Below, in pieces: positions 4,521-14,691 of a DNA stretch of 18,055 nt. This DNA comes from a virus: UHGV virus genome UHGV-0106651, one strand, 5' to 3'. A program made the position numbers and the translations under genes. The notes below the pieces were generated by a model. That model made no database searches, was not told the DNA's origin, and saw nothing but the letters and a program-made list of their open reading frames with translations. Position 1 is the first letter of the stretch, and the number at the start of each line of letters is the position of its first letter.

Positions 4521-5375
4521 TCAGCAGTTCGTCATCAGGGCGTCTCCGCCACCGCCGGTGGCCTTGCTGCGGCGCTGCTGGGTCAGACTTTCGGTGTGGT
4601 CGAGACTGTTTTTCAGGCGGGTGAATGCCTGGCTGGTTTCATCCGCCCTGTCAGTCACCTCCTGCTTAAGTGCGGAAAAGGCGTTTTCCATCTCAGCGAG
4701 GCGCTGCTCAGTGGCGCTCAGTTTTTCCTGCACATGTTCAGCAACAGCGGTCACCGCTTCATGCACGTCATTCAGACGGGCGTCATCGCTGGCCTGTTTG
4801 CGGCCAAAAATGGATTTCACCTTTTCGGTCAGGGCGGTGAACACGGTTTCAGGCAGGTCTTCAAATTCCAGCTCAACGGGCGTTGCCACTGAAATCAGGT
4901 TTTCAGGGCTTAATTTGAAGCGGTTCAGGGGGTTGTGTTTTGCCGTGCGGCAGAATTCCAGATATTCCGTGCCGAGGCTTGCCGGGTCATCGGTGACGGC
5001 CAGCCCCACCAGATAACATTTGCCGGTGTTGGCAAAGTTCGGCTGAATCTCCATTGAGGTGTAGACCTTCTGCGCGGCCTTGTTCATCGCGATAAGGTCA
5101 TCGGTCGGGGTGATTTTCGCAAACAGCGCCCATTTGCCTTTCAGCGCCGAATCATCGTCAATCTTTTCGGCCTTCAGTTCAGCCACATCACCATAACGCT
5201 TAAAAATACCGTCAGGCAGGATGCCGCGCAGATGTTCCAGGTTAATACGGCAACCATAGACACGCGGGTCAAAGGTTTCGGCCATTTCCTGAATATCCTG
5301 CGCACTGATGACACGCCCGTCACAGGTGTCACCCTCAACGCCGATACGAAAGAATTTTGAGACTTTTTTTGCCAT
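4521..5375 (-). CDS. O: Capsid scaffolding protein gpO, 284 aa
   Basis: Start at the ATG giving MAKKVSKFFRIGVEG, preceded by an AGGA ribosome-binding site. The 284-aa length matches P2 gpO; the track ORF is extended by 22 codons upstream. Confidence 0.85.
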   Translation of the reverse strand: MAKKVSKFFRIGVEGDTCDGRVISAQDIQEMAETFDPRVYGCRINLEHLRGILPDGIFKRYGDVAELKAEKIDDDSALKGKWALFAKITPTDDLIAMNKAAQKVYTSMEIQPNFANTGKCYLVGLAVTDDPASLGTEYLEFCRTAKHNPLNRFKLSPENLISVATPVELEFEDLPETVFTALTEKVKSIFGRKQASDDARLNDVHEAVTAVAEHVQEKLSATEQRLAEMENAFSALKQEVTDRADETSQAFTRLKNSLDHTESLTQQRRSKATGGGGDALMTNC

Positions 5376-5548
5376 TGTCAGGAGTCCTGAATAGTGATTA
5401 GAGGAGTCACATGTCGGCATCAGTTTCCCGACGATGCGCATCCTCCGCCATCAGTCCCGGATGGCTTATCACTGACACAACAGCACCTTAGCGAATCGCG
5501 GGGCGCGACTCAGTAGCCTTGCCGTGTATTCATCACGGCGAGGTATTC
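5376..5548. promoter_or_regulatory. Divergent late-promoter region between O (minus) and P (plus)
   Basis: 173-bp intergenic spacer between divergently transcribed capsid and packaging operons, the position of the P_O and P_P late promoters in P2. Exact promoter and activator sites were not resolved by eye. Confidence 0.5.
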
Positions 5549-7321
5549 ATGACCATCACCACAGACACCACTCTTTTACACGACCCGCGTCGTCAGGCGG
5601 CGCTGCTGTACTGGCAGGGGTTTTCCGTGCCGCAGATTGCCGCCATGTTGCAGATGAAACGCCCGACGGTGCAGAGCTGGAAACAGCGCGACGGCTGGGA
5701 CAGCGTTGCTCCCATCAGCCGTGTCGAAATGAGTCTGGAAGCGCGGCTGACCCAGCTCATCATAAAACCGCAGAAAACAGGCGGTGACTTCAAGGAAATT
5801 GACCTGCTCGGACGCCAGATTGAACGACTGGCACGGGTAAACCGCTACAACCAGACCGGCAACGAGGCAGACCTTAATCCGAACATCGCTAACCGCAACA
5901 AAGGCGGGCGGCGCAAACCGAAAAAGAATTTTTTCAGCGACGAGGCTATCGAAAAGCTGGAGCAGATTTTCTTTGAGCAGTCTTTCGAATATCAGTTGCA
6001 CTGGTATCGCGCCGGGCTTGAGCACCGCATCCGCGATATCCTGAAATCCCGCCAGATTGGCGCGACGTTTTATTTTTCCCGCGAGGCGCTGCTGCGCGCC
6101 CTGAAAACCGGTCATAACCAGATTTTTCTGTCGGCCAGTAAAACGCAGGCGTATGTGTTCCGCGAATACATCATCGCCTTTGCCCGGCTGGTTGACGTTG
6201 ACCTGACCGGTGACCCGATTGTCCTGGGCAATAACGGCGCAAAACTGATTTTTCTCGGCACCAACTCCAACACCGCACAGAGCCATAACGGCGACCTGTA
6301 CGTCGACGAGATTTTCTGGATCCCGAATTTTCAGGTACTGCGTAAGGTGGCATCAGGTATGGCCTCACAGAGCCACCTGCGCTCGACCTATTTCTCCACC
6401 CCGTCCACGCTGGCGCACGACGCCTACCCGTTCTGGTCGGGTGAACTGTTTAACCGGGGACGCGCCAGCGCCGCCGAACGCGTGGAAATCGACGTCAGTC
6501 ATAACGCCCTTGCCGGTGGGCTTCTCTGTGCGGACGGCCAGTGGCGACAGATTGTCACCATTGAGGACGCCCTGAAAGGTGGCTGCACGCTGTTCGACAT
6601 TGAGCAGCTCAAACGCGAAAACAGCGCCGACGATTTTAAAAACCTGTTCATGTGTGAATTTGTTGACGACAAGGCGTCGGTGTTCCCGTTCGAGGAGCTG
6701 CAACGCTGCATGGTCGACACGCTGGAAGAATGGGAAGACTATGCACCCTTTGCCGCCAATCCGTTCGGCTCCCGCCCGGTATGGATTGGTTACGACCCGT
6801 CACACCGTGGCGACAGCGCCGGATGCGTGGTACTGGCACCGCCGGTGGTGGCCGGTGGCAAATTCAGAATACTTGAGCGTCACCAGTGGAAAGGCATGGA
6901 CTTTGCCACTCAGGCTGAATCCATCCGCAAACTCACCGAAAAATATAACGTTGAATACATCGGTATTGATGCCACCGGCCTCGGTGTCGGCGTGTTCCAG
7001 CTCGTGCGCTCGTTCTATCCCGCCGCGCGCGACATCCGCTACACGCCGGAAATGAAAACCGCAATGGTGCTCAAGGCAAAAGACGTTATCCGCCGTGGCT
7101 GTCTGGAATATGACGTCAGCGCCACCGACATCACCAGCTCGTTTATGGCTATCCGCAAGACCATGACCAGCAGTGGACGCAGCGCCACCTATGAGGCCAG
7201 CCGCAGCGAGGAAGCCAGCCACGCCGACCTCGCCTGGGCGACCATGCACGCCCTGTTAAATGAGCCACTCACCGCCGGTATCAGCACCCCGCTGACATCC
7301 ACCATTCTGGAGTTTTACTGA
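5549..7321 (+). CDS. P: Terminase large (ATPase) subunit gpP, 590 aa
   Basis: Start at ATG 5549 (MTITTDTTLL) with GAGGT ribosome-binding site 5 nt upstream. 590 aa; stop overlaps the Q start (TGATG). Confidence 0.9.
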   Translation: MTITTDTTLLHDPRRQAALLYWQGFSVPQIAAMLQMKRPTVQSWKQRDGWDSVAPISRVEMSLEARLTQLIIKPQKTGGDFKEIDLLGRQIERLARVNRYNQTGNEADLNPNIANRNKGGRRKPKKNFFSDEAIEKLEQIFFEQSFEYQLHWYRAGLEHRIRDILKSRQIGATFYFSREALLRALKTGHNQIFLSASKTQAYVFREYIIAFARLVDVDLTGDPIVLGNNGAKLIFLGTNSNTAQSHNGDLYVDEIFWIPNFQVLRKVASGMASQSHLRSTYFSTPSTLAHDAYPFWSGELFNRGRASAAERVEIDVSHNALAGGLLCADGQWRQIVTIEDALKGGCTLFDIEQLKRENSADDFKNLFMCEFVDDKASVFPFEELQRCMVDTLEEWEDYAPFAANPFGSRPVWIGYDPSHRGDSAGCVVLAPPVVAGGKFRILERHQWKGMDFATQAESIRKLTEKYNVEYIGIDATGLGVGVFQLVRSFYPAARDIRYTPEMKTAMVLKAKDVIRRGCLEYDVSATDITSSFMAIRKTMTSSGRSATYEASRSEEASHADLAWATMHALLNEPLTAGISTPLTSTILEFY

Positions 7322-8349
7322 TGAGCAAGAAAAAAGGGAAAACACCGCAACCTGCGGCAAAAACAATGACCGCCAGCACCCCGAAAATGGAGGCATTCAC
7401 CTTTGGTGAGCCGGTGCCGGTACTCGACCGCCGTGACATTCTGGATTACGTCGAATGCATCAGTAACGGCAGATGGTATGAGCCGCCGGTCAGCTTTACC
7501 GGGCTGGCAAAAAGCCTGCGTGCTGCCGTGCATCACAGCTCCCCGATTTACGTCAAACGTAATATTCTGGCTTCAACGTTTATCCCGCACCCGTGGCTTT
7601 CCCAGCAGGATTTCAGCCGCTTTGTGCTGGATTTTCTGGTGTTCGGTAATGCGTTTCTGGAAAAGCGTTACAGCACCACCGGTAAGGTCATCAGACTGGA
7701 AACCTCACCGGCAAAATATACCCGTCGTGGCGTGGAGGAGGATGTTTACTGGTGGGTGCCGTCCTTCAACGAGCCGACACCTTTTACGCCCGGCTCCGTG
7801 TTTCACCTGCTGGAGCCCGATATTAATCAGGAGCTGTACGGCCTGCCGGAATATCTCAGCGCCCTCAACTCTGCCTGGCTGAATGAGTCGGCCACGCTGT
7901 TCCGCCGCAAGTATTACGAAAACGGCGCTCATGCCGGATACATCATGTACGTCACTGATGCCGTGCAGGATCGCAACGATATCGAAATGCTCCGCGAAAA
8001 CATGGTGAAGTCGAAAGGCCGCAATAACTTTAAAAATCTGTTTCTCTATGCCCCACAGGGGAAAGCCGACGGCATTAAAATTATCCCGCTCAGTGAAGTG
8101 GCGACGAAGGACGATTTTTTTAATATCAAAAAAGCCAGCGCCGCTGACCTGCTGGACGCGCACCGCATCCCCTTTCAGTTGATGGGTGGCAAGCCGGAGA
8201 ACGTCGGGTCGCTGGGTGATATTGAGAAAGTGGCAAAGGTCTTTGTCCGCAATGAACTTATCCCGTTACAGGACAGGATCCGCGAGATAAACGGCTGGCT
8301 TAGCACAGAGGTTATTCAATTCAAAAATTACTCTTTAGACACCAATTAG
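7321..8349 (+). CDS. Q: Portal protein gpQ, 342 aa
   Basis: 342-aa product immediately downstream of P on the same strand, ending at the edge of the AT-rich cargo, as expected for the cos-proximal portal gene. Confidence 0.9.
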   Translation: MSKKKGKTPQPAAKTMTASTPKMEAFTFGEPVPVLDRRDILDYVECISNGRWYEPPVSFTGLAKSLRAAVHHSSPIYVKRNILASTFIPHPWLSQQDFSRFVLDFLVFGNAFLEKRYSTTGKVIRLETSPAKYTRRGVEEDVYWWVPSFNEPTPFTPGSVFHLLEPDINQELYGLPEYLSALNSAWLNESATLFRRKYYENGAHAGYIMYVTDAVQDRNDIEMLRENMVKSKGRNNFKNLFLYAPQGKADGIKIIPLSEVATKDDFFNIKKASAADLLDAHRIPFQLMGGKPENVGSLGDIEKVAKVFVRNELIPLQDRIREINGWLSTEVIQFKNYSLDTN

Positions 8350-8395
8350 CCCTAGTGATTATACGATAATTAGCCCTAGTATTATCTAGGGCTAA
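8346..8395. repeat. Three copies of TTAGCCCTAG (two direct, one inverted) forming a 10-bp perfect stem-loop; likely bidirectional terminator between convergent Q and the cargo operon
   Basis: TTAGCCCTAG at 8346-8355 (overlapping the Q stop codon) and 8370-8379; reverse complement CTAGGGCTAA at 8386-8395 with a 6-nt loop. A T-run follows on the plus strand at 8411-8417. Confidence 0.6.
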
Positions 8396-8408
8396 CAATT
8401 ATATAATT

Positions 8409-8981
8409 CTATTTTTTCATATTGTATATAACTTCGCAAACACCCGTCAGTGTTAATCGGCTATAATTTTCCAATGTAAACACAGGATAATCATAAAAAA
8501 CCTCAGGTTCTGGCAATGGCGAACGAACAGTTGTTCTTTTATTTGACTGCATCCTCCTCGACAATTTACTTATTACACCAATGTAACCCACCTTTCTTGA
8601 CAAATGCCCATGTAATTTCAATACAGAATATAGCCACTTACAAAAATGAATGCCAGTAACTATCTGTTTAGCGGCACGATTTGAGTTATAAGACTTAAGA
8701 TCTATTACGATAAAATAATCCATATCCCTGTACGACGTAACAAAAATCCCATCACAAACAGAGGATAGCCCAGTTAAGGTTGAAGATTTTAAAAATTTCC
8801 AAACTGGTTTAGATACACTAGTAGAATCTAACGAAAATCCATATACACCATTTCCATTCACCAATAATTTCTTATTAGCAGAACTGGGATTATCTTCGCA
8901 TATGACCCAACATGCCTGCTCCCGTGTTAATTGAAATGCAGGATCGATGCAATTCTGTATTACACTGATAATATTACTCAT
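8409..8981 (-). CDS. Hypothetical 190-aa protein, second gene of the cargo operon; possible small TOPRIM-like nuclease partner (speculative)
   Basis: ATG at 8979-8981 (reverse complement) overlaps the upstream ATPase stop by 8 nt (ATGAGTAA), indicating translational coupling. AT-rich. Contains WVICEDNPS and RDMDYFIVID, loosely resembling the TOPRIM glutamate and DxD motifs; no confident domain call. Confidence 0.6.
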   Translation of the reverse strand: MSNIISVIQNCIDPAFQLTREQACWVICEDNPSSANKKLLVNGNGVYGFSLDSTSVSKPVWKFLKSSTLTGLSSVCDGIFVTSYRDMDYFIVIDLKSYNSNRAAKQIVTGIHFCKWLYSVLKLHGHLSRKVGYIGVISKLSRRMQSNKRTTVRSPLPEPEVFYDYPVFTLENYSRLTLTGVCEVIYNMKK

Positions 8982-10410
8982 CTGCCCCCTCACTATCAGA
9001 GGAGTTTTCTACTAACGAATAATATATTTCATCATTATCATCATTAATGGCGTTAATTACCTCATCAAAAGTTACAGCATGAATTCCTTCATTTGATTTT
9101 TGCATTTCATTTACAGAACCGCCATCAAATAAATAAGCAGCAACCATGTTAGAATCTAAAATTGAGTCGATGCTAATTCCTTGCTTACGCATTACAGTGT
9201 TTCGTTTTTCAATCATATTTTCAGAAACGCCATGAAGCATCATTAAGCTATTGATTTCCTTGACAAAATAATCACTGTGAGTACTAACAACAACCCGAAT
9301 ACCAGAGTTAACTAATTTTGCCAAAAATCTTGCAATTACTCGCTGATTTGACGGGTGTAAATTTAACTCTGGTTCGTCAATCATTAGAATGTCACCAACT
9401 TTTGCTTGATGTTCTAAATAAAACCATAAACCAAACAAACTCTTAACAGTAGATGACGATAAATGAAGATCAATTTTTTTGCTTGCAGGTGTTTTACCTT
9501 TCTTATATGTAGAAAAGTAAATTTGCCCTTCAGGATCAACCGAATATTTCCCTGATATTATTTTTTTTACTTCTTCTGCCAACTTATGAAATTGGCCATT
9601 TTTATTTTTTCTATTTACCTTAATCTCATTTAGCCAGTCTATATAATTTGCTATAGGAGCAGAATATCTTGACTTCATTACATCCATTAACAGTGAATTA
9701 AGATCGAATTGCTCTTTTGAAGCATGATGCAATAATGTAGTTCTTCTAGAGCTTAATTCATTAAAAAAAAGATGCAATCCATTCCTTTCAGCAGGAATTA
9801 AGAAGGCCGGACTTTCATCATGCTCGATTTTTAATAACTGACTTAGAGTCAAATTTATAAACCCGTCTACTCTTGGAAAAACAGAATCTAGCAGCGTCAT
9901 TTGTATGATATTACTGTTTTCATCTTTGGATAATAGCATTACTTCTTTTTTGCCAGTTCCTATGACGAGGCTAACATCCAGTTTTTTTTCATAAACACTT
10001 GATGTTAATGACTCTTCATCAATAACCCAGTCAAATGTTGAATTAGAAAAAATCTCATTATCATTAGTACTAAACACATCCCTCAGCATTAAAGATGAGC
10101 TTTTATTAAACTCTTTTTTAATTAACGTGAAGTTATTTTTTATCCAGTCAATCACATCTAACTCAAACTTGCCATTTTCACGAAGAGTTTTGGCAAAGTT
10201 TGCTACTTGTGGCAATTTTAAAGATGGTGATGGCATATTTAGGAAGCCATATAACCCATACATAACCCATGTTTTACCAGTGTTATTCTTCCCACATAAA
10301 AGAGTTAAAGGTTTTGCATTAATCTCTCCTGCAGAGATACACCCAATATTTTTAAATGAAAACTTCCATGATGCTAATTTACTTACATTAATTTCACTTT
10401 GCTTTTTCAT
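8974..10410 (-). CDS. ABC-type ATPase of the AAA_21/AAA_15 (OLD/SMC-like) kind, 478 aa; first gene of the cargo operon
   Basis: Walker A LLCGKNNTGKT near the N-terminus, signature-like HLSSSTVKSL, Walker B ILMIDEPELNLHP, H-loop VVVSTHSD. Strong ribosome-binding site AAGGAAG 5 nt before the ATG. Roughly one-third GC by eye, against a visibly GC-richer phage backbone. Confidence 0.8.
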   Translation of the reverse strand: MKKQSEINVSKLASWKFSFKNIGCISAGEINAKPLTLLCGKNNTGKTWVMYGLYGFLNMPSPSLKLPQVANFAKTLRENGKFELDVIDWIKNNFTLIKKEFNKSSSLMLRDVFSTNDNEIFSNSTFDWVIDEESLTSSVYEKKLDVSLVIGTGKKEVMLLSKDENSNIIQMTLLDSVFPRVDGFINLTLSQLLKIEHDESPAFLIPAERNGLHLFFNELSSRRTTLLHHASKEQFDLNSLLMDVMKSRYSAPIANYIDWLNEIKVNRKNKNGQFHKLAEEVKKIISGKYSVDPEGQIYFSTYKKGKTPASKKIDLHLSSSTVKSLFGLWFYLEHQAKVGDILMIDEPELNLHPSNQRVIARFLAKLVNSGIRVVVSTHSDYFVKEINSLMMLHGVSENMIEKRNTVMRKQGISIDSILDSNMVAAYLFDGGSVNEMQKSNEGIHAVTFDEVINAINDDNDEIYYSLVENSSDSEGADE

Positions 10411-10670
10411 TGAACTTCCTTAATCAATCACATACAAATAAAGAAGACCATTGTTCATGTGAAAAATCAATACTTTCGATACTATACTAAATGACTACGA
10501 ACAATAGTGCTTCACTCTCCACCAATCCTGATAGGTTAAGATATATGGGCTGTTTTCTCAAACTTGCCGCGCTGTACTGAGCCTCCTGTATAAGTCATTT
10601 AATATAATGCGCATCCTAACTCTGAAACAGTAAGTTTATCTGTGCTACATTTCCGTTTTGCATGCGCGCA

Positions 10671-10689
10671 GTGCTTTCCCCGCCTCGCC
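10671..10689. other. cos: cos site: the 19-nt cohesive-end sequence of P2/186-type phages (present here as the reverse complement)
   Basis: GTGCTTTCCCCGCCTCGCC at 10671-10689 is the exact reverse complement of GGCGAGGCGGGGAAAGCAC, remembered as the P2 cohesive end. It lies between A and Q as expected for a prophage. Confidence 0.8.
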
Positions 10690-10851: not shown

Positions 10852-11376
10852 TCAACGCACCGGAATGTAAGATTCAAGGTCTCTGATTACGGCTTGTTTC
10901 AGTGCTTCAGATACAGCCTCAAGTTCTGGCAATGCTGGCTTTTCACTTAAGTTCGTTTCGAATTCCCCGCTTCCTATTACTAGCGTAAAGCCATTTCCAT
11001 CACGTAGCAGTTTCAAAGGAATAATCACGTTTAACTTAGGATGAGCAACCGGTGACTTATCCACTGTAAGGCCAATAAAAAATGACAAAATCCCATCTGC
11101 ATCAGGCAACAGATCGTGTAACTGAACTTTAGATTTTTCACCATCTTTAATTGCAGCGACAAAAACATAATTTTCAGTGGGGTTTTGCCCTGGATAGCCC
11201 CAGCAAGTTTGCTCAAGCTCAAGCGACCCCTCAAAGTTTTTCGCAATCAGCCCAACAATATTTTGTAAACGCTCTTTTTCCTCTCTCTGTAACCGAACGA
11301 TTTCAATATACTTATCTCTTATAGTCTGAAAAGTAATCACTTTAATCTCCTGAAACGGTTTACACAGAAACAGCAT
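10852..11376 (-). CDS. Hypothetical protein, 174 aa; orphan cargo gene on the replication-gene side of cos
   Basis: Uninterrupted ORF with a purine-rich stretch (AGGGGG) before the ATG and its own terminator downstream. No recognisable motifs. GC appears intermediate between the backbone and the ATPase operon. Confidence 0.6.
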   Translation of the reverse strand: MLFLCKPFQEIKVITFQTIRDKYIEIVRLQREEKERLQNIVGLIAKNFEGSLELEQTCWGYPGQNPTENYVFVAAIKDGEKSKVQLHDLLPDADGILSFFIGLTVDKSPVAHPKLNVIIPLKLLRDGNGFTLVIGSGEFETNLSEKPALPELEAVSEALKQAVIRDLESYIPVR

Positions 11377-11482: not shown

Positions 11483-11689
11483 CTATCGTCTGCGTGGTGC
11501 TGGCATAACTCTGGACTGACTGATATAGCTAAACCGCCCGTAATTATCCCGGACTATTTCGGCACACCCGACTAGCTCATCGGGCGTCAGATTTTCGTTG
11601 ACCATAATCTGCTGTAGACGCTGAACAATGGCCATCAGCTTGGCGCTTTTGGCGTTATGCTGCGGTATCTCGCCTGGTATTCTGTGCAT
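11483..11689 (-). CDS. Hypothetical small protein, 68 aa, translationally coupled to the upstream DUF3850-like gene
   Basis: ATG at 11687-11689 (reverse complement) overlaps the upstream TAA stop as TAATG. The track ORF 11483..11701 has an earlier in-frame ATG; the coupled start is preferred. Confidence 0.45.
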   Translation of the reverse strand: MHRIPGEIPQHNAKSAKLMAIVQRLQQIMVNENLTPDELVGCAEIVRDNYGRFSYISQSRVMPAPRRR

Positions 11690-12141
11690 TATCCAAGCCA
11701 CCCGTTTTGCTGTGCACGCTCCACCTGTTCATCTGAATAGTTCCATGCTCCATCCGTGGCAACCATTGCCCCGCCAGACATCCCCGTCTCTGGTTCATAC
11801 ATAACAGCAAGGCCGAGCTGATGCATAATTTCATGATTAATTCTGAATATCAGGCCACGCTCACTAAGTTCTTTCCAGTTCACAATCTCATATGCACCTG
11901 TATTAAGCAGCTCAATACTTAGCAAGACATAATCTTCCAGCCAGTCTGACAGGTCAGTAACATCTGTTATCCGGGCTTCAACCTTTCGCCCCGTATACAC
12001 ACCCTGCACCCATTCACGCAAAATCAACGTGTCCCGGCGCTCATAATTACGGTCATTTTTCCGAAACTCTGCACGTTTATGTCCTTCCAGCACAAGGTCG
12101 AAATATTTTGCGTGAAGCTTTACCTCGTGAATTTTTGCCAT
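11689..12141 (-). CDS. DUF3850-like (ASCH/PUA-like fold) protein with a C-terminal HExxH-containing extension, 150 aa
   Basis: Start MAKIHEVKLHAKYFDLVLEGHKRAEFRKNDRNYERRDTLILREW resembles the remembered DUF3850 consensus. C-terminal part contains INHEIMHQLG. Its ATG overlaps the A stop (TAATG). Confidence 0.6.
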   Translation of the reverse strand: MAKIHEVKLHAKYFDLVLEGHKRAEFRKNDRNYERRDTLILREWVQGVYTGRKVEARITDVTDLSDWLEDYVLLSIELLNTGAYEIVNWKELSERGLIFRINHEIMHQLGLAVMYEPETGMSGGAMVATDGAWNYSDEQVERAQQNGWLG

Positions 12142-14426
12142 TATGTCCACTCCATTACTGTTGAGAATCCCAGCCACTCATCAGCGACCGGATACGTGAA
12201 TTTTTTCCCGTCGTAATTTACGGTCGCGCCACGCACCAGCGCCTCAAGCTCCCATCGCTGCGGCCTGATACCGTTCTGAGCAAGGTCAACGCGGATACGG
12301 GTGATTTGCAATCGTTCAGACCTGGTCAGTCTGGCAGATGGTGCAATTTCATGCGGTTTTAACGGGATTCCGTTTCTTTGCTGACGATTTGGTGTTCTCA
12401 GTCCGTGTTTTAATGCGCCCCTGAGCGCCATCACGACCTCCGGGTCACTCCATTCGATAACACCGTCATCTACCAGATTAAGCACTGCTGCGGCGTGCTC
12501 AGAAGGTGTGGGAGCCGGTAACGAAGTATCACCACCGGTGAGCTTTCCACAGTTATTGACAGGACTCCGAGGCGCGGCGATGCCGCTTTTTAAAGTCAAA
12601 GGCTCCACGACCGGCACTTTCGGCACAATGCGCCAGTCCGTCGTTCTGGTGATATGAATATGACGCGCGCCGAGATGCGGCGCGTAAATGCCGACCACTC
12701 TCTCGACCTCTTCCTCGTACTCGTTAACGTCATCCGACGAGCTACGGGCAACCCTGACAGTCTGACAATCGCGCGGGACATTTGCCCCACCCTGCGCGCT
12801 GATATACAGCGCAAAATCGCCACTGTCTGCGGCAGCGCGTGCAGCCTCGACGCGTTCGTCAAACTCATCAGCAATGCTGACACCGCGGGGCAATTTGCGT
12901 AGTTCACGGTAAGCCCCCATTGTCGGCAGGCCAACAGTTTTAAATTGTGGGATACGCCACGTTGACGCCCATGCGGTAACAGCCGCAGCAGTATCTTTCA
13001 GTGGCCTGCCGGTATCGTTATCGAGCTGACCATCCAGTGCATAGCCATCGATGTTTTTTGAGATGTATTTCGCGATATACCCCGCAGCACCGCCCCGATT
13101 AAGATGTTTTGCCTGAAAACGGTTTCGCGCGGCTCCTCTTTCGTCGCCATCCTCTTTAAGCGCATAGCGACGCATGATTTCGATAATCTGGTTACGCTGG
13201 CGTGGATTACAAAAAAGCATCATATGCCAGTGCGGCGTTCCGTCGTGGTGTGGCTCGACGACTCGCAAACCGTAGACCTGTAAATCATTATCCTTGAATG
13301 CCGTGCGCATCAGGCTCCAGATGCGGCAGAGATAACGCTGCGCATCCTTTGGATTAAATGCCTCATCGTTCCAGCCGTGATTAAGCTGGACGGTTTTACT
13401 TTCGCCTTTTCTGACCTGACGTGTCGGGTGATACTTTGACGGCGCGGTCAGCGTGATAAACATCCCCACATCACCCTCTGCGGCAGCGTAACGCTCAATA
13501 CCGGCGATGGTGTTCATCAGCTCCATCCGGCGAATTTCTGGATTAGAAATACTGCCCATCACCTTACTGATAAGGTCGATGCGCTCGCCGGTTTCCCTGT
13601 TTTCAAGGTCACACGATTTAAGAAATTCCAGATTTGCCTGGCGGCGCGCACGCACATCACGAATGGCATGTTTACTGGCATAAGGAGAACGGTCTTTATT
13701 GACCTCCCCGACAGCAATCAGTAACGCCTCATGCCAGCGCATACGCTGGCCTTTAAGCTGATGAGTCCACCATTCATCGTTAAACAGACGGGCAATGGCA
13801 GAATATGCCTGCCTCGTGGTCATCTGCCCTTTACGGTATTTTTTCAAGTAGAGCGGGGAAATATTGAAAGCACGTGCAGCGCCAGCAACATGACCATACA
13901 GGTGAGCCTGCGCCTCATCCGTAAACAGCGATTCTTTTTCGCCATGGGCATCCACCCAGGCATCGCAGAGTTCCTCATACATCATGAAAAGCTGCGATGA
14001 GATACGGGCGGCAAATTTTTTCAGCTCCTTGTCATTCATTCCCGGCAGGCGCGCATAGTGGTCACGCTCTGCCAGAAACAGTAACGACGCGTCGGTGTTC
14101 ATTTCATGGCGCTGATTCACGCGCTCAATGCGCGGCCATAAACGACGCTGAAAAGTGGCTGTGAGGAAATAAAACCCGTGCACCGGGCTTTTATTGCGCC
14201 GGATGTAGTCATAGCGTGAAGTAAACAGCGAGCGCAAAAAGTAAGGCAGGCGATTAATCGTGGATAAAACACCTTGCACCTGACGCATCTCGTCACGTGT
14301 AAGGGGTCTTTCGCGCCCGACGGCCTCGCGTGGCGCGTTCCATGCATAAGCACCGGTAAACGTCTCACCGGTGCCTGCGGCAAATGCTGACGGAGGGACA
14401 AAACGCCCGGAGGCTTTAACGGCCAT
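12141..14426 (-). CDS. A: Replication initiation protein gpA (rolling-circle HUH endonuclease), 761 aa
   Basis: Start at the ATG giving MAVKASGRFVPPSAFAAGTGE, 761 aa as in P2 gpA. HUH motif TPHWHMMLF and tyrosine-pair region YIAKYISK are present. Confidence 0.9.
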   Translation of the reverse strand: MAVKASGRFVPPSAFAAGTGETFTGAYAWNAPREAVGRERPLTRDEMRQVQGVLSTINRLPYFLRSLFTSRYDYIRRNKSPVHGFYFLTATFQRRLWPRIERVNQRHEMNTDASLLFLAERDHYARLPGMNDKELKKFAARISSQLFMMYEELCDAWVDAHGEKESLFTDEAQAHLYGHVAGAARAFNISPLYLKKYRKGQMTTRQAYSAIARLFNDEWWTHQLKGQRMRWHEALLIAVGEVNKDRSPYASKHAIRDVRARRQANLEFLKSCDLENRETGERIDLISKVMGSISNPEIRRMELMNTIAGIERYAAAEGDVGMFITLTAPSKYHPTRQVRKGESKTVQLNHGWNDEAFNPKDAQRYLCRIWSLMRTAFKDNDLQVYGLRVVEPHHDGTPHWHMMLFCNPRQRNQIIEIMRRYALKEDGDERGAARNRFQAKHLNRGGAAGYIAKYISKNIDGYALDGQLDNDTGRPLKDTAAAVTAWASTWRIPQFKTVGLPTMGAYRELRKLPRGVSIADEFDERVEAARAAADSGDFALYISAQGGANVPRDCQTVRVARSSSDDVNEYEEEVERVVGIYAPHLGARHIHITRTTDWRIVPKVPVVEPLTLKSGIAAPRSPVNNCGKLTGGDTSLPAPTPSEHAAAVLNLVDDGVIEWSDPEVVMALRGALKHGLRTPNRQQRNGIPLKPHEIAPSARLTRSERLQITRIRVDLAQNGIRPQRWELEALVRGATVNYDGKKFTYPVADEWLGFSTVMEWT

Positions 14427-14691
14427 ATGAGCCAAAAGCCTCTGAACAACGCTTGCTGAGTTGCTCAACCTGCGCGTTTAAATCAGCAAAAGACTTTGCG
14501 CTTCCGGTCAGAATATCGTGATGCATCAGGCCGGAAACGAGCTGGCTTAATTTCGGGTAATAACCAACCACCGCCAGCCATTCCTGACCGGCGTTTTTAC
14601 CGCTTTCAGCTCTCTTTTTCTCGTGGAGAATAAACTGAAAGCTGTCACAGGTAACGACATAACGTTCGCCAATTTCTATACGAATACTCAT
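14416..14691 (-). CDS. Small early protein, 91 aa, immediately upstream of A (resembles the small ORFs between B and A in P2)
   Basis: ORF overlapping the A start by 11 nt, in the same orientation and operon. Confidence 0.6.
   Translation of the reverse strand: MSIRIEIGERYVVTCDSFQFILHEKKRAESGKNAGQEWLAVVGYYPKLSQLVSGLMHHDILTGSAKSFADLNAQVEQLSKRCSEAFGSYGR

Follow-up and report, generated by a model that had tools for sequence, protein, structure and literature searches.

The gpA-gpQ interval around the cohesive-end sequence (cos) is a published hotspot for defense systems in phage P2 (PMC9122126; PMC9519451; PMC13586616). On the Q side of cos, P2 has the stop codon of portal gene Q, then 5 nt, then a hairpin called tQ, and then the remainder of a 167-bp spacer that runs to cos. 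The tQ hairpin is annotated as a putative rho-independent terminator of the P operon (P2 bp 160 to 181; NC_001895); it has a 6-bp stem made only of G-C pairs, followed by a run of six T residues, and no gene converges on it. Ribosomes strongly repress terminators that stand a few base pairs past a stop codon, with recovery at a distance of about 18 to 30 nt, and in reporters built on the lambda terminator tR2, efficiency climbs steeply between about 8 and 30 nt from the stop (PMC4824070). The prototype of the PD-T4-4 system, to which the cargo described below is similar, was reported from an ICE-like element and not from P2 (PMC9519451).

We analyzed a window, by which we mean the whole 18,055-nucleotide stretch of UHGV virus genome UHGV-0106651, which is a P2-like prophage of E. 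coli (it matches strain UTAK-5 at 100% identity over a 1-kb query). As in the P2 hotspot, a predicted anti-phage-type system is found between Q and A, beside cos, but relative to cos it is on the Q side, and the P2 genes old and tin are on the A side. Just past the Q stop codon, the window has a 10-nt motif, TTAGCCCTAG, in two direct copies and one inverted copy. The second and third copies form one symmetric hairpin in a short gap (about 60 nt) between converging stop codons, and in this they resemble the bidirectional intrinsic terminators between convergent bacterial genes that Ju, Li and Liu reportedly described in Nat Microbiol in 2019. The symmetry of A-tract, stem, and U-tract is weak in the window, however, and clearer in a related locus from Pantoea (L011).

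The cargo (8409 to 10410, minus strand) is a PD-T4-4-like predicted defense pair. Its adjacent A (ATPase) and B proteins match the corresponding PADLOC models, the A model with an E value of 1.6e-111 and full coverage of the model, and the B model with an E value of 5e-12 over 3 to 158 of 190 positions. The cassette is 2.3 kb long and low in GC (about 33%), and it replaces the entire 167-bp Q-to-cos spacer of P2, tQ included. Approaching cos from the Q side, homology to P2 does not return until about 8 nt short of the 19-mer (from about 10663), and across cos, on the other side, about 45 to 60 nt are conserved. Q-side cargo is in the minority: E. coli genomes have the Q 3' region at 1,883 places and the P2-type spacer at 1,770 (about 94%). 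The cassette is present in 19 of 5,426 E. coli genomes, of which 3 are identical to the window and 16 have a sister allele, with E. coli W as its example, that is 89.7% identical to it. No isolated phage in INPHARED has this cargo. Two assemblies labeled "DH5alpha," H35 and H47, carry the W-type P2-like prophage with its cassette; in a K-12 derivative, this is a surprise that points to mislabeled strains. The positions of the features are given in Table 1.

Table 1. Features of the prophage from gene P to gene A, in window coordinates.
Feature	Position	Strand	Description
Gene P	5519-7321	+	
Portal gene Q	7321-8349	+	342 aa; P2-like, 97-100% identity to ~8300
AT-rich alternative Q tail	8301-8349	+	Last 16 codons and stop, protein ending ...LSTEVIQFKNYSLDTN; junction at 5' edge
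Duplication unit 1	8335-8358	+	TTAGACACCAATTAGCCCTAGTGA; real last four Q codons (LDTN), stop, unused 5' arm 8346-8355
Duplication unit 2	8359-8382	+	TTATACGATAATTAGCCCTAGTAT; ghost Q C-terminus (LYDN and stop in the window), working 5' arm 8370-8379
Outer stem, imperfect, AU-rich	8358-8407		22-nt arms, 82% complementary; not conserved in E. coli W
Core hairpin	8370-8395		Stem TTAGCCCTAG/CTAGGGCTAA, 10 bp, perfect; loop TATTAT
PD-T4-4 B-like gene	8409-8993	-	194 aa (NCBI: 190 aa); stop TAG 8411-8409
PD-T4-4 A-like ATPase	8974-10410	-	478 aa; AAA_15/AAA_21
Upstream region of cargo operon, presumably promoter	10411-10662	-	Part of cassette, without P2 homology
P2 19-nt cohesive-end sequence (cos)	10671-10689	-	Exact
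Replication gene A	12141-14468		Further accessory genes between cos and A

The repeat itself is much as the first-pass annotation of this DNA had reported. The motif occurs on the plus strand at 8346 to 8355 and again at 8370 to 8379, its reverse complement is at 8386 to 8395, the stop codon of the Q open reading frame (TAG, 8347 to 8349) lies inside copy 1, and copies 2 and 3 pair perfectly over 10 bp around a 6-nt loop. Searched with a tolerance of one mismatch, the 18-kb window has three matches to the motif, all of them inside 50 nt, where about 0.56 would be expected by chance; three were reached in 2 of 200 shuffles. The direct repeat is longer than had been described, extending to 22 nt (8335 to 8356 against 8359 to 8380, 18 of 22 identical) with a period of 24, and was equaled in 2 of 500 shuffles. 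The inverted repeat also extends, imperfectly, to 22-nt arms at 8358 to 8379 and 8386 to 8407.

The same annotation had placed the three copies exactly at the junction between phage backbone and cargo, and here the comparison with P2 gives a different answer. Identity between the two Q genes breaks about 48 nt upstream of the repeat, inside Q, at about position 8301; beyond the highly similar part of the gene, it falls to 75% over 8281 to 8340, and the Q protein ends in ...LSTEVIQFKNYSLDTN in the window versus ...LGQEVIRFKNYSLDTDND in P2. The 19 E. coli genomes with the cargo are also the only ones in which the AT-rich Q tail was found. This linkage, together with the drop in identity after about 8300, places the junction inside Q, and the repeat lies wholly within the imported module. 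In the Cronobacter relative, Q homology to other phages likewise ends inside the gene, about 30 nt before the stop codon. No cargo-free phage with the three copies was found: P2 and 74 other phage records lose similarity to the window at 8342, and at the position equivalent to the repeat, P2 has tQ.

The direct repeat is a 24-nt tandem duplication that comprises the end of Q, from the last four codons through the stop, and the hairpin's 5' arm. The first unit in E. coli W (TTAGACGATAATTAA...) encodes LDDN and a stop, which is the true Q end, and unit 2 (TTAGATGATAATTAG...) likewise encodes LDDN and a stop, identical to the real Q end of W, so that the second unit carries a ghost of the Q C-terminus. 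The arm of copy 1 is degraded in W (TTAACCC-AAT), while the hairpin of unit 2 has been retained, and copy 1 is thus apparently free of pairing constraint. The duplication is confined to the E. coli lineage, and none of the other relatives that we read has one. It would have arisen in a single event on the E. coli branch of the cassette family, after which the upstream unit would have kept the coding sequence and the stop and the downstream unit the pairing. Copy 1 would then have no role of its own, being a by-product of the 24-nt duplication. A switch in which copy 1 and copy 2 alternately pair with the 3' arm was considered and rejected, because both pairings share the same 3' arm and tail and so give no opposite outcomes, and because copy 1 is degenerate in W.

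Relatives of the cassette are few, the B protein having only 9 homologous clusters among 5.8 billion proteins. Ten loci with a B homolog were read, and nine have the cargo pair facing a P2-type portal gene in convergent orientation: the window, E. coli W (L003), L017, L006, L007, L008, L011, L012, and L015, which span E. coli, Cronobacter, Scandinavium, Pantoea, and metagenomes. The tenth, L014, is a short metagenome contig in which the neighboring open reading frame was not recognized as Q. All nine of the Q-adjacent loci have one dominant hairpin between the converging stop codons, in a gap of 45 to 60 nt, and the spacing from the Q stop to the hairpin is 5 to 7 nt in the relatives. Every lineage has a hairpin, down to a B-protein identity of 53%, although the intergenic sequence around it is otherwise scrambled. 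In Cronobacter sakazakii (L008), the ATPase is split into two open reading frames (143 and 322 aa). The Pantoea loci (L009 to L011) have the PD-T4-4-like pair beside a broken portal gene and the host genes yebY and copD, and this looks like a decayed prophage that retained its defense cassette.

A homologous stem is common to the window, W, L006, L008, L012, and L015, and the E. coli stem is in register with those of the GCCCCTA group. The hairpins outside E. coli read TGCCCCTAA-N9-TTAGGGGCA in L006, GCCCCTAA-N7-TTAGGGGC in the C. sakazakii locus, and TTGCCCCTA-N10/11-TAGGGGCAA in L012 and L015. In the stem alignment, 90.9% of cells pair, against 28 to 63% when the partners are slid, and RNAalifold, unaided, predicted the same helix. 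Changes on both sides were seen at two stem pairs (G-C to A-U and C-G to G-C). A third compensatory pair, G-C in the window and A-U in L006, was found by eye; it is masked by gap placement, the two innermost pairs of the window being hidden behind loop gaps in the arm-to-arm alignment. The helix has been kept in diverged relatives through these compensatory changes, in a sample of six sequences in which E. coli versus the rest is essentially a single branch. The sample stayed at six because the B family is small; protein-guided scans for B added only Scandinavium from genome contigs and only one W-type locus from metagenome contigs. The W hairpin has a G.U pair and an A/C mismatch in its upper stem, and its fold has a z score of about -1.8 to -1.95.

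Two other hairpins are unrelated in sequence. The Scandinavium locus (L007) has a stem of 11 to 12 bp, CCTTGAAATCA, followed by U7 on the cargo strand, and by its sequence, this is a canonical, textbook terminator. The Pantoea hairpin (L011) reads AAAGGCUCA-GAUA-UGAGCCUUU, with A-tract and T-tract flanks and U-rich sequence on its 3' side. E. coli STK77-E has another kind of cassette on the Q side, with an AT-rich Q tail and a hairpin of its own. The constancy of a hairpin at this site, whatever its sequence, argues for a structural role in RNA and against a sequence-specific DNA site.

In the window, half of the 10 bp in the core stem are G-C pairs, and the hairpin stands 20 nt past the Q stop and 13 nt past the stop of the converging B gene. 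Folded alone as RNA, the 26-mer gives -15.6 kcal/mol on the plus strand and -15.1 kcal/mol on the minus strand; 86-nt folds in context give -22.4 (z = -4.9) and -25.8 (z = -4.25). It is, then, a stable, G+C-containing stem-loop just past a stop codon, and it resembles tQ in its place, past the Q stop and before cos, and in its stability (-13.0 kcal/mol for tQ). The two differ in that the window hairpin has no sequence homology to tQ, has a 10-bp stem of mixed composition and a weak T tail, lies between converging genes, and is borne by the cargo and not by the backbone. Directly 3' of the stem, T accounts for 3 of 8 nt on the plus strand (CAATTATA) and 4 of 8 on the minus strand (TTATCGTA), compared to 6 of 8 after tQ, so neither strand has a U-rich tract of about 5 or more in 8 nt. 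A run of six T residues on the plus strand (8412 to 8417) follows the imperfect extended stem only, and on the opposite strand it is the last two Lys codons of the B gene. A consensus terminator scan passed over the hairpin on both strands, and a scan of 8100 to 8700 with Rfam 15 returned no covariance model at E values up to 1, a permissive threshold. Because a canonical U-tract is lacking on both strands and the scan made no call, termination at this hairpin is deduced and not directly recognized.

The explanation that we prefer, and which we think will probably hold, is that the element is a conserved transcript-end hairpin, borne by the cassette, plus a leftover copy from the 24-nt duplication of the Q end; in short, ordinary gene-end punctuation. 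The structural and evolutionary parts of this account are solid. A terminator function for the hairpin is probable, judging from its sequence and position, and from these we infer transcript termination or stabilization and the strand concerned. The hairpin made by copies 2 and 3 would stand at the 3' ends of two converging units, the late P-Q operon on the plus strand and the defense operon on the minus strand. The defense cassette would have replaced the whole Q-to-cos spacer of P2, and the hairpin would have arrived with it and would most likely do the job of tQ, stopping or stabilizing the ends of late Q transcripts. In doing so, it would keep those transcripts from an antisense run through the defense genes and across cos, and in the other direction, it would end the defense transcript before antisense entry into Q. 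The first-pass annotation had offered two ideas, an insulating bidirectional terminator and a relic or target of recombination, and the former has proved the better supported: the hairpin is kept in relatives, shows compensatory changes, and takes the place of tQ, though it lacks a canonical U-tract and a call in the terminator scan.

The weakness of the tails leaves room for a hairpin that does not terminate. It might instead shield mRNA 3' ends from 3'-to-5' exonucleases in the style of a REP-type stem-loop, with transcription stopping at another point, perhaps by the action of Rho or where converging polymerases collide. A stem that is stable next to U-tracts that are weak on both strands, and conserved while the tails vary among relatives, would suit such a role. 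However, its positional equivalents, namely, P2 tQ, the Scandinavium hairpin with its U7, and those of L006 and L012 (5 of 8 T in their tails), resemble true intrinsic terminators. Sequence alone cannot separate protection from termination, and we regard protection without termination as unlikely, if still worth serious thought.

A variant of the preferred explanation concerns the duplication, which may have been selected and not neutral, restoring termination by freeing an arm from the stop codon. The ancestral Q stop would have stood inside the 5' arm, so that a terminating ribosome blocked folding and late transcription read antisense through the defense operon and cos; with a free copy of the arm moved to 20 nt past the stop, termination would have been regained. 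The change in stop-to-hairpin distance, from overlapping (as deduced for the state before duplication) to 20 nt, is like that studied by Li et al. in 2016 (PMC4824070), but their terminator was lambda tR2 in reporter constructs. Since the relatives live with Q-side spacings of 5 to 7 nt, selection for spacing is not required, and we consider the variant rather doubtful. If true, it would be a natural case of a tuned distance between stop codon and terminator, the effect of which was measured in the reporter work (PMC4824070).

It is quite improbable that hairpin and repeat are simply neutral leftovers, functionless and persisting because the E. coli alleles are young. There are only two such alleles (in 3 and 16 genomes), and the tails are poor, as this reading would have it, but a hairpin is found in every lineage down to the most distant B proteins, with paired changes in the stem.

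That the repeat is a scar or target of recombination, whether as a duplicated junction, as a target-site duplication, or as a place where a site-specific recombinase acts, is very improbable, even though a short direct duplication that includes the end of Q does adjoin foreign, low-GC DNA. The idea of a duplicated junction stands as far as the duplication of the Q end goes, which is real, but the two copies belong to the AT-rich segment that was imported, and the true junction, at about 8301, is upstream of them. The other boundary of the cassette is at cos, and a search at that end found no partner motif. Elsewhere in the window, a 13-mer containing the motif has no further copy with fewer than 3 mismatches, and the matches at 3 mismatches are within chance. 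The first-pass annotation had suggested looking in host genomes for the motif beside other cassettes; it is a single locus in the 19 of 5,426 E. coli genomes that have it, with no copy elsewhere in the 5,426, and the exact hairpin pattern had no match among IMG/VR viral contigs. The duplication is missing from relatives that carry the cassette, some of which have hairpins of unrelated sequence. The cassette, which encodes the ATPase and the B protein only, has no recombinase or transposase gene. The recombinase target that had been proposed is therefore not borne out.

An operator for a DNA-binding protein, consisting of the palindrome and an extra direct half-site 24 bp away, is hardly credible, for although the 10-bp half-sites are perfect and their spacing is near two helical turns, the site is at the 3' ends of converging genes with no promoter-like site called there, W has kept neither the third half-site nor the inner positions of the palindrome, the changes are compensatory for pairing and do not preserve sequence, and the Scandinavium and Pantoea sequences differ at the site.

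The repeat itself is of little import, and the layout of the cassette around it is more useful; the element serves as a marker of how Q-side defense cassettes are built and exchanged. Q-side cassettes of P2-like prophages, a minority class, are single modules that combine an alternative Q tail and a hairpin with a converging cargo operon and a promoter region, and the module ends inside Q on one side and within about 8 nt of the cohesive-end sequence on the other. Because such cassettes delete tQ, they must bring their own terminator. In the packaged linear genome, the PD-T4-4-like cassette would sit at the extreme left end, where one crossover in Q could be enough to swap it, the physical end at cos acting as the second boundary. 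The layout is as expected if cassettes are exchanged in this way, by one homologous crossover in Q; Rousset et al. raised such exchange in 2022 as speculation only (PMC9122126).

Other cargo was seen around cos in the course of this analysis. The STK77-E locus (L019, 3470 to 6000; NZ_CP162190) has a three-gene cargo encoding proteins of 215, 139, and 387 aa, unannotated and with no PADLOC match. A candidate uncharacterized defense system, this cargo is convergent with Q and extends to an exact cos, and its hairpin is GCCGCTA-GTAA-TAGCGGC. The window itself has a second accessory cargo on the gene A side of cos, at 10852 to 11376 and 11689 to 12177, both on the minus strand. The first of these genes encodes a product of 174 aa with no Pfam or PADLOC match, and just downstream of it is a canonical-looking terminator (10843 to 10821, minus strand); the product of the second has DUF3850/ASCH and DUF7415 domains. 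Finally, the B gene has an exact 9-nt direct repeat, CCAATGTAA, at 8471 to 8479 and 8578 to 8586, 107 nt apart, that is kept in both E. coli alleles (4571 to 4579 and 4678 to 4686 in L003) and may reflect chance or coding constraint.
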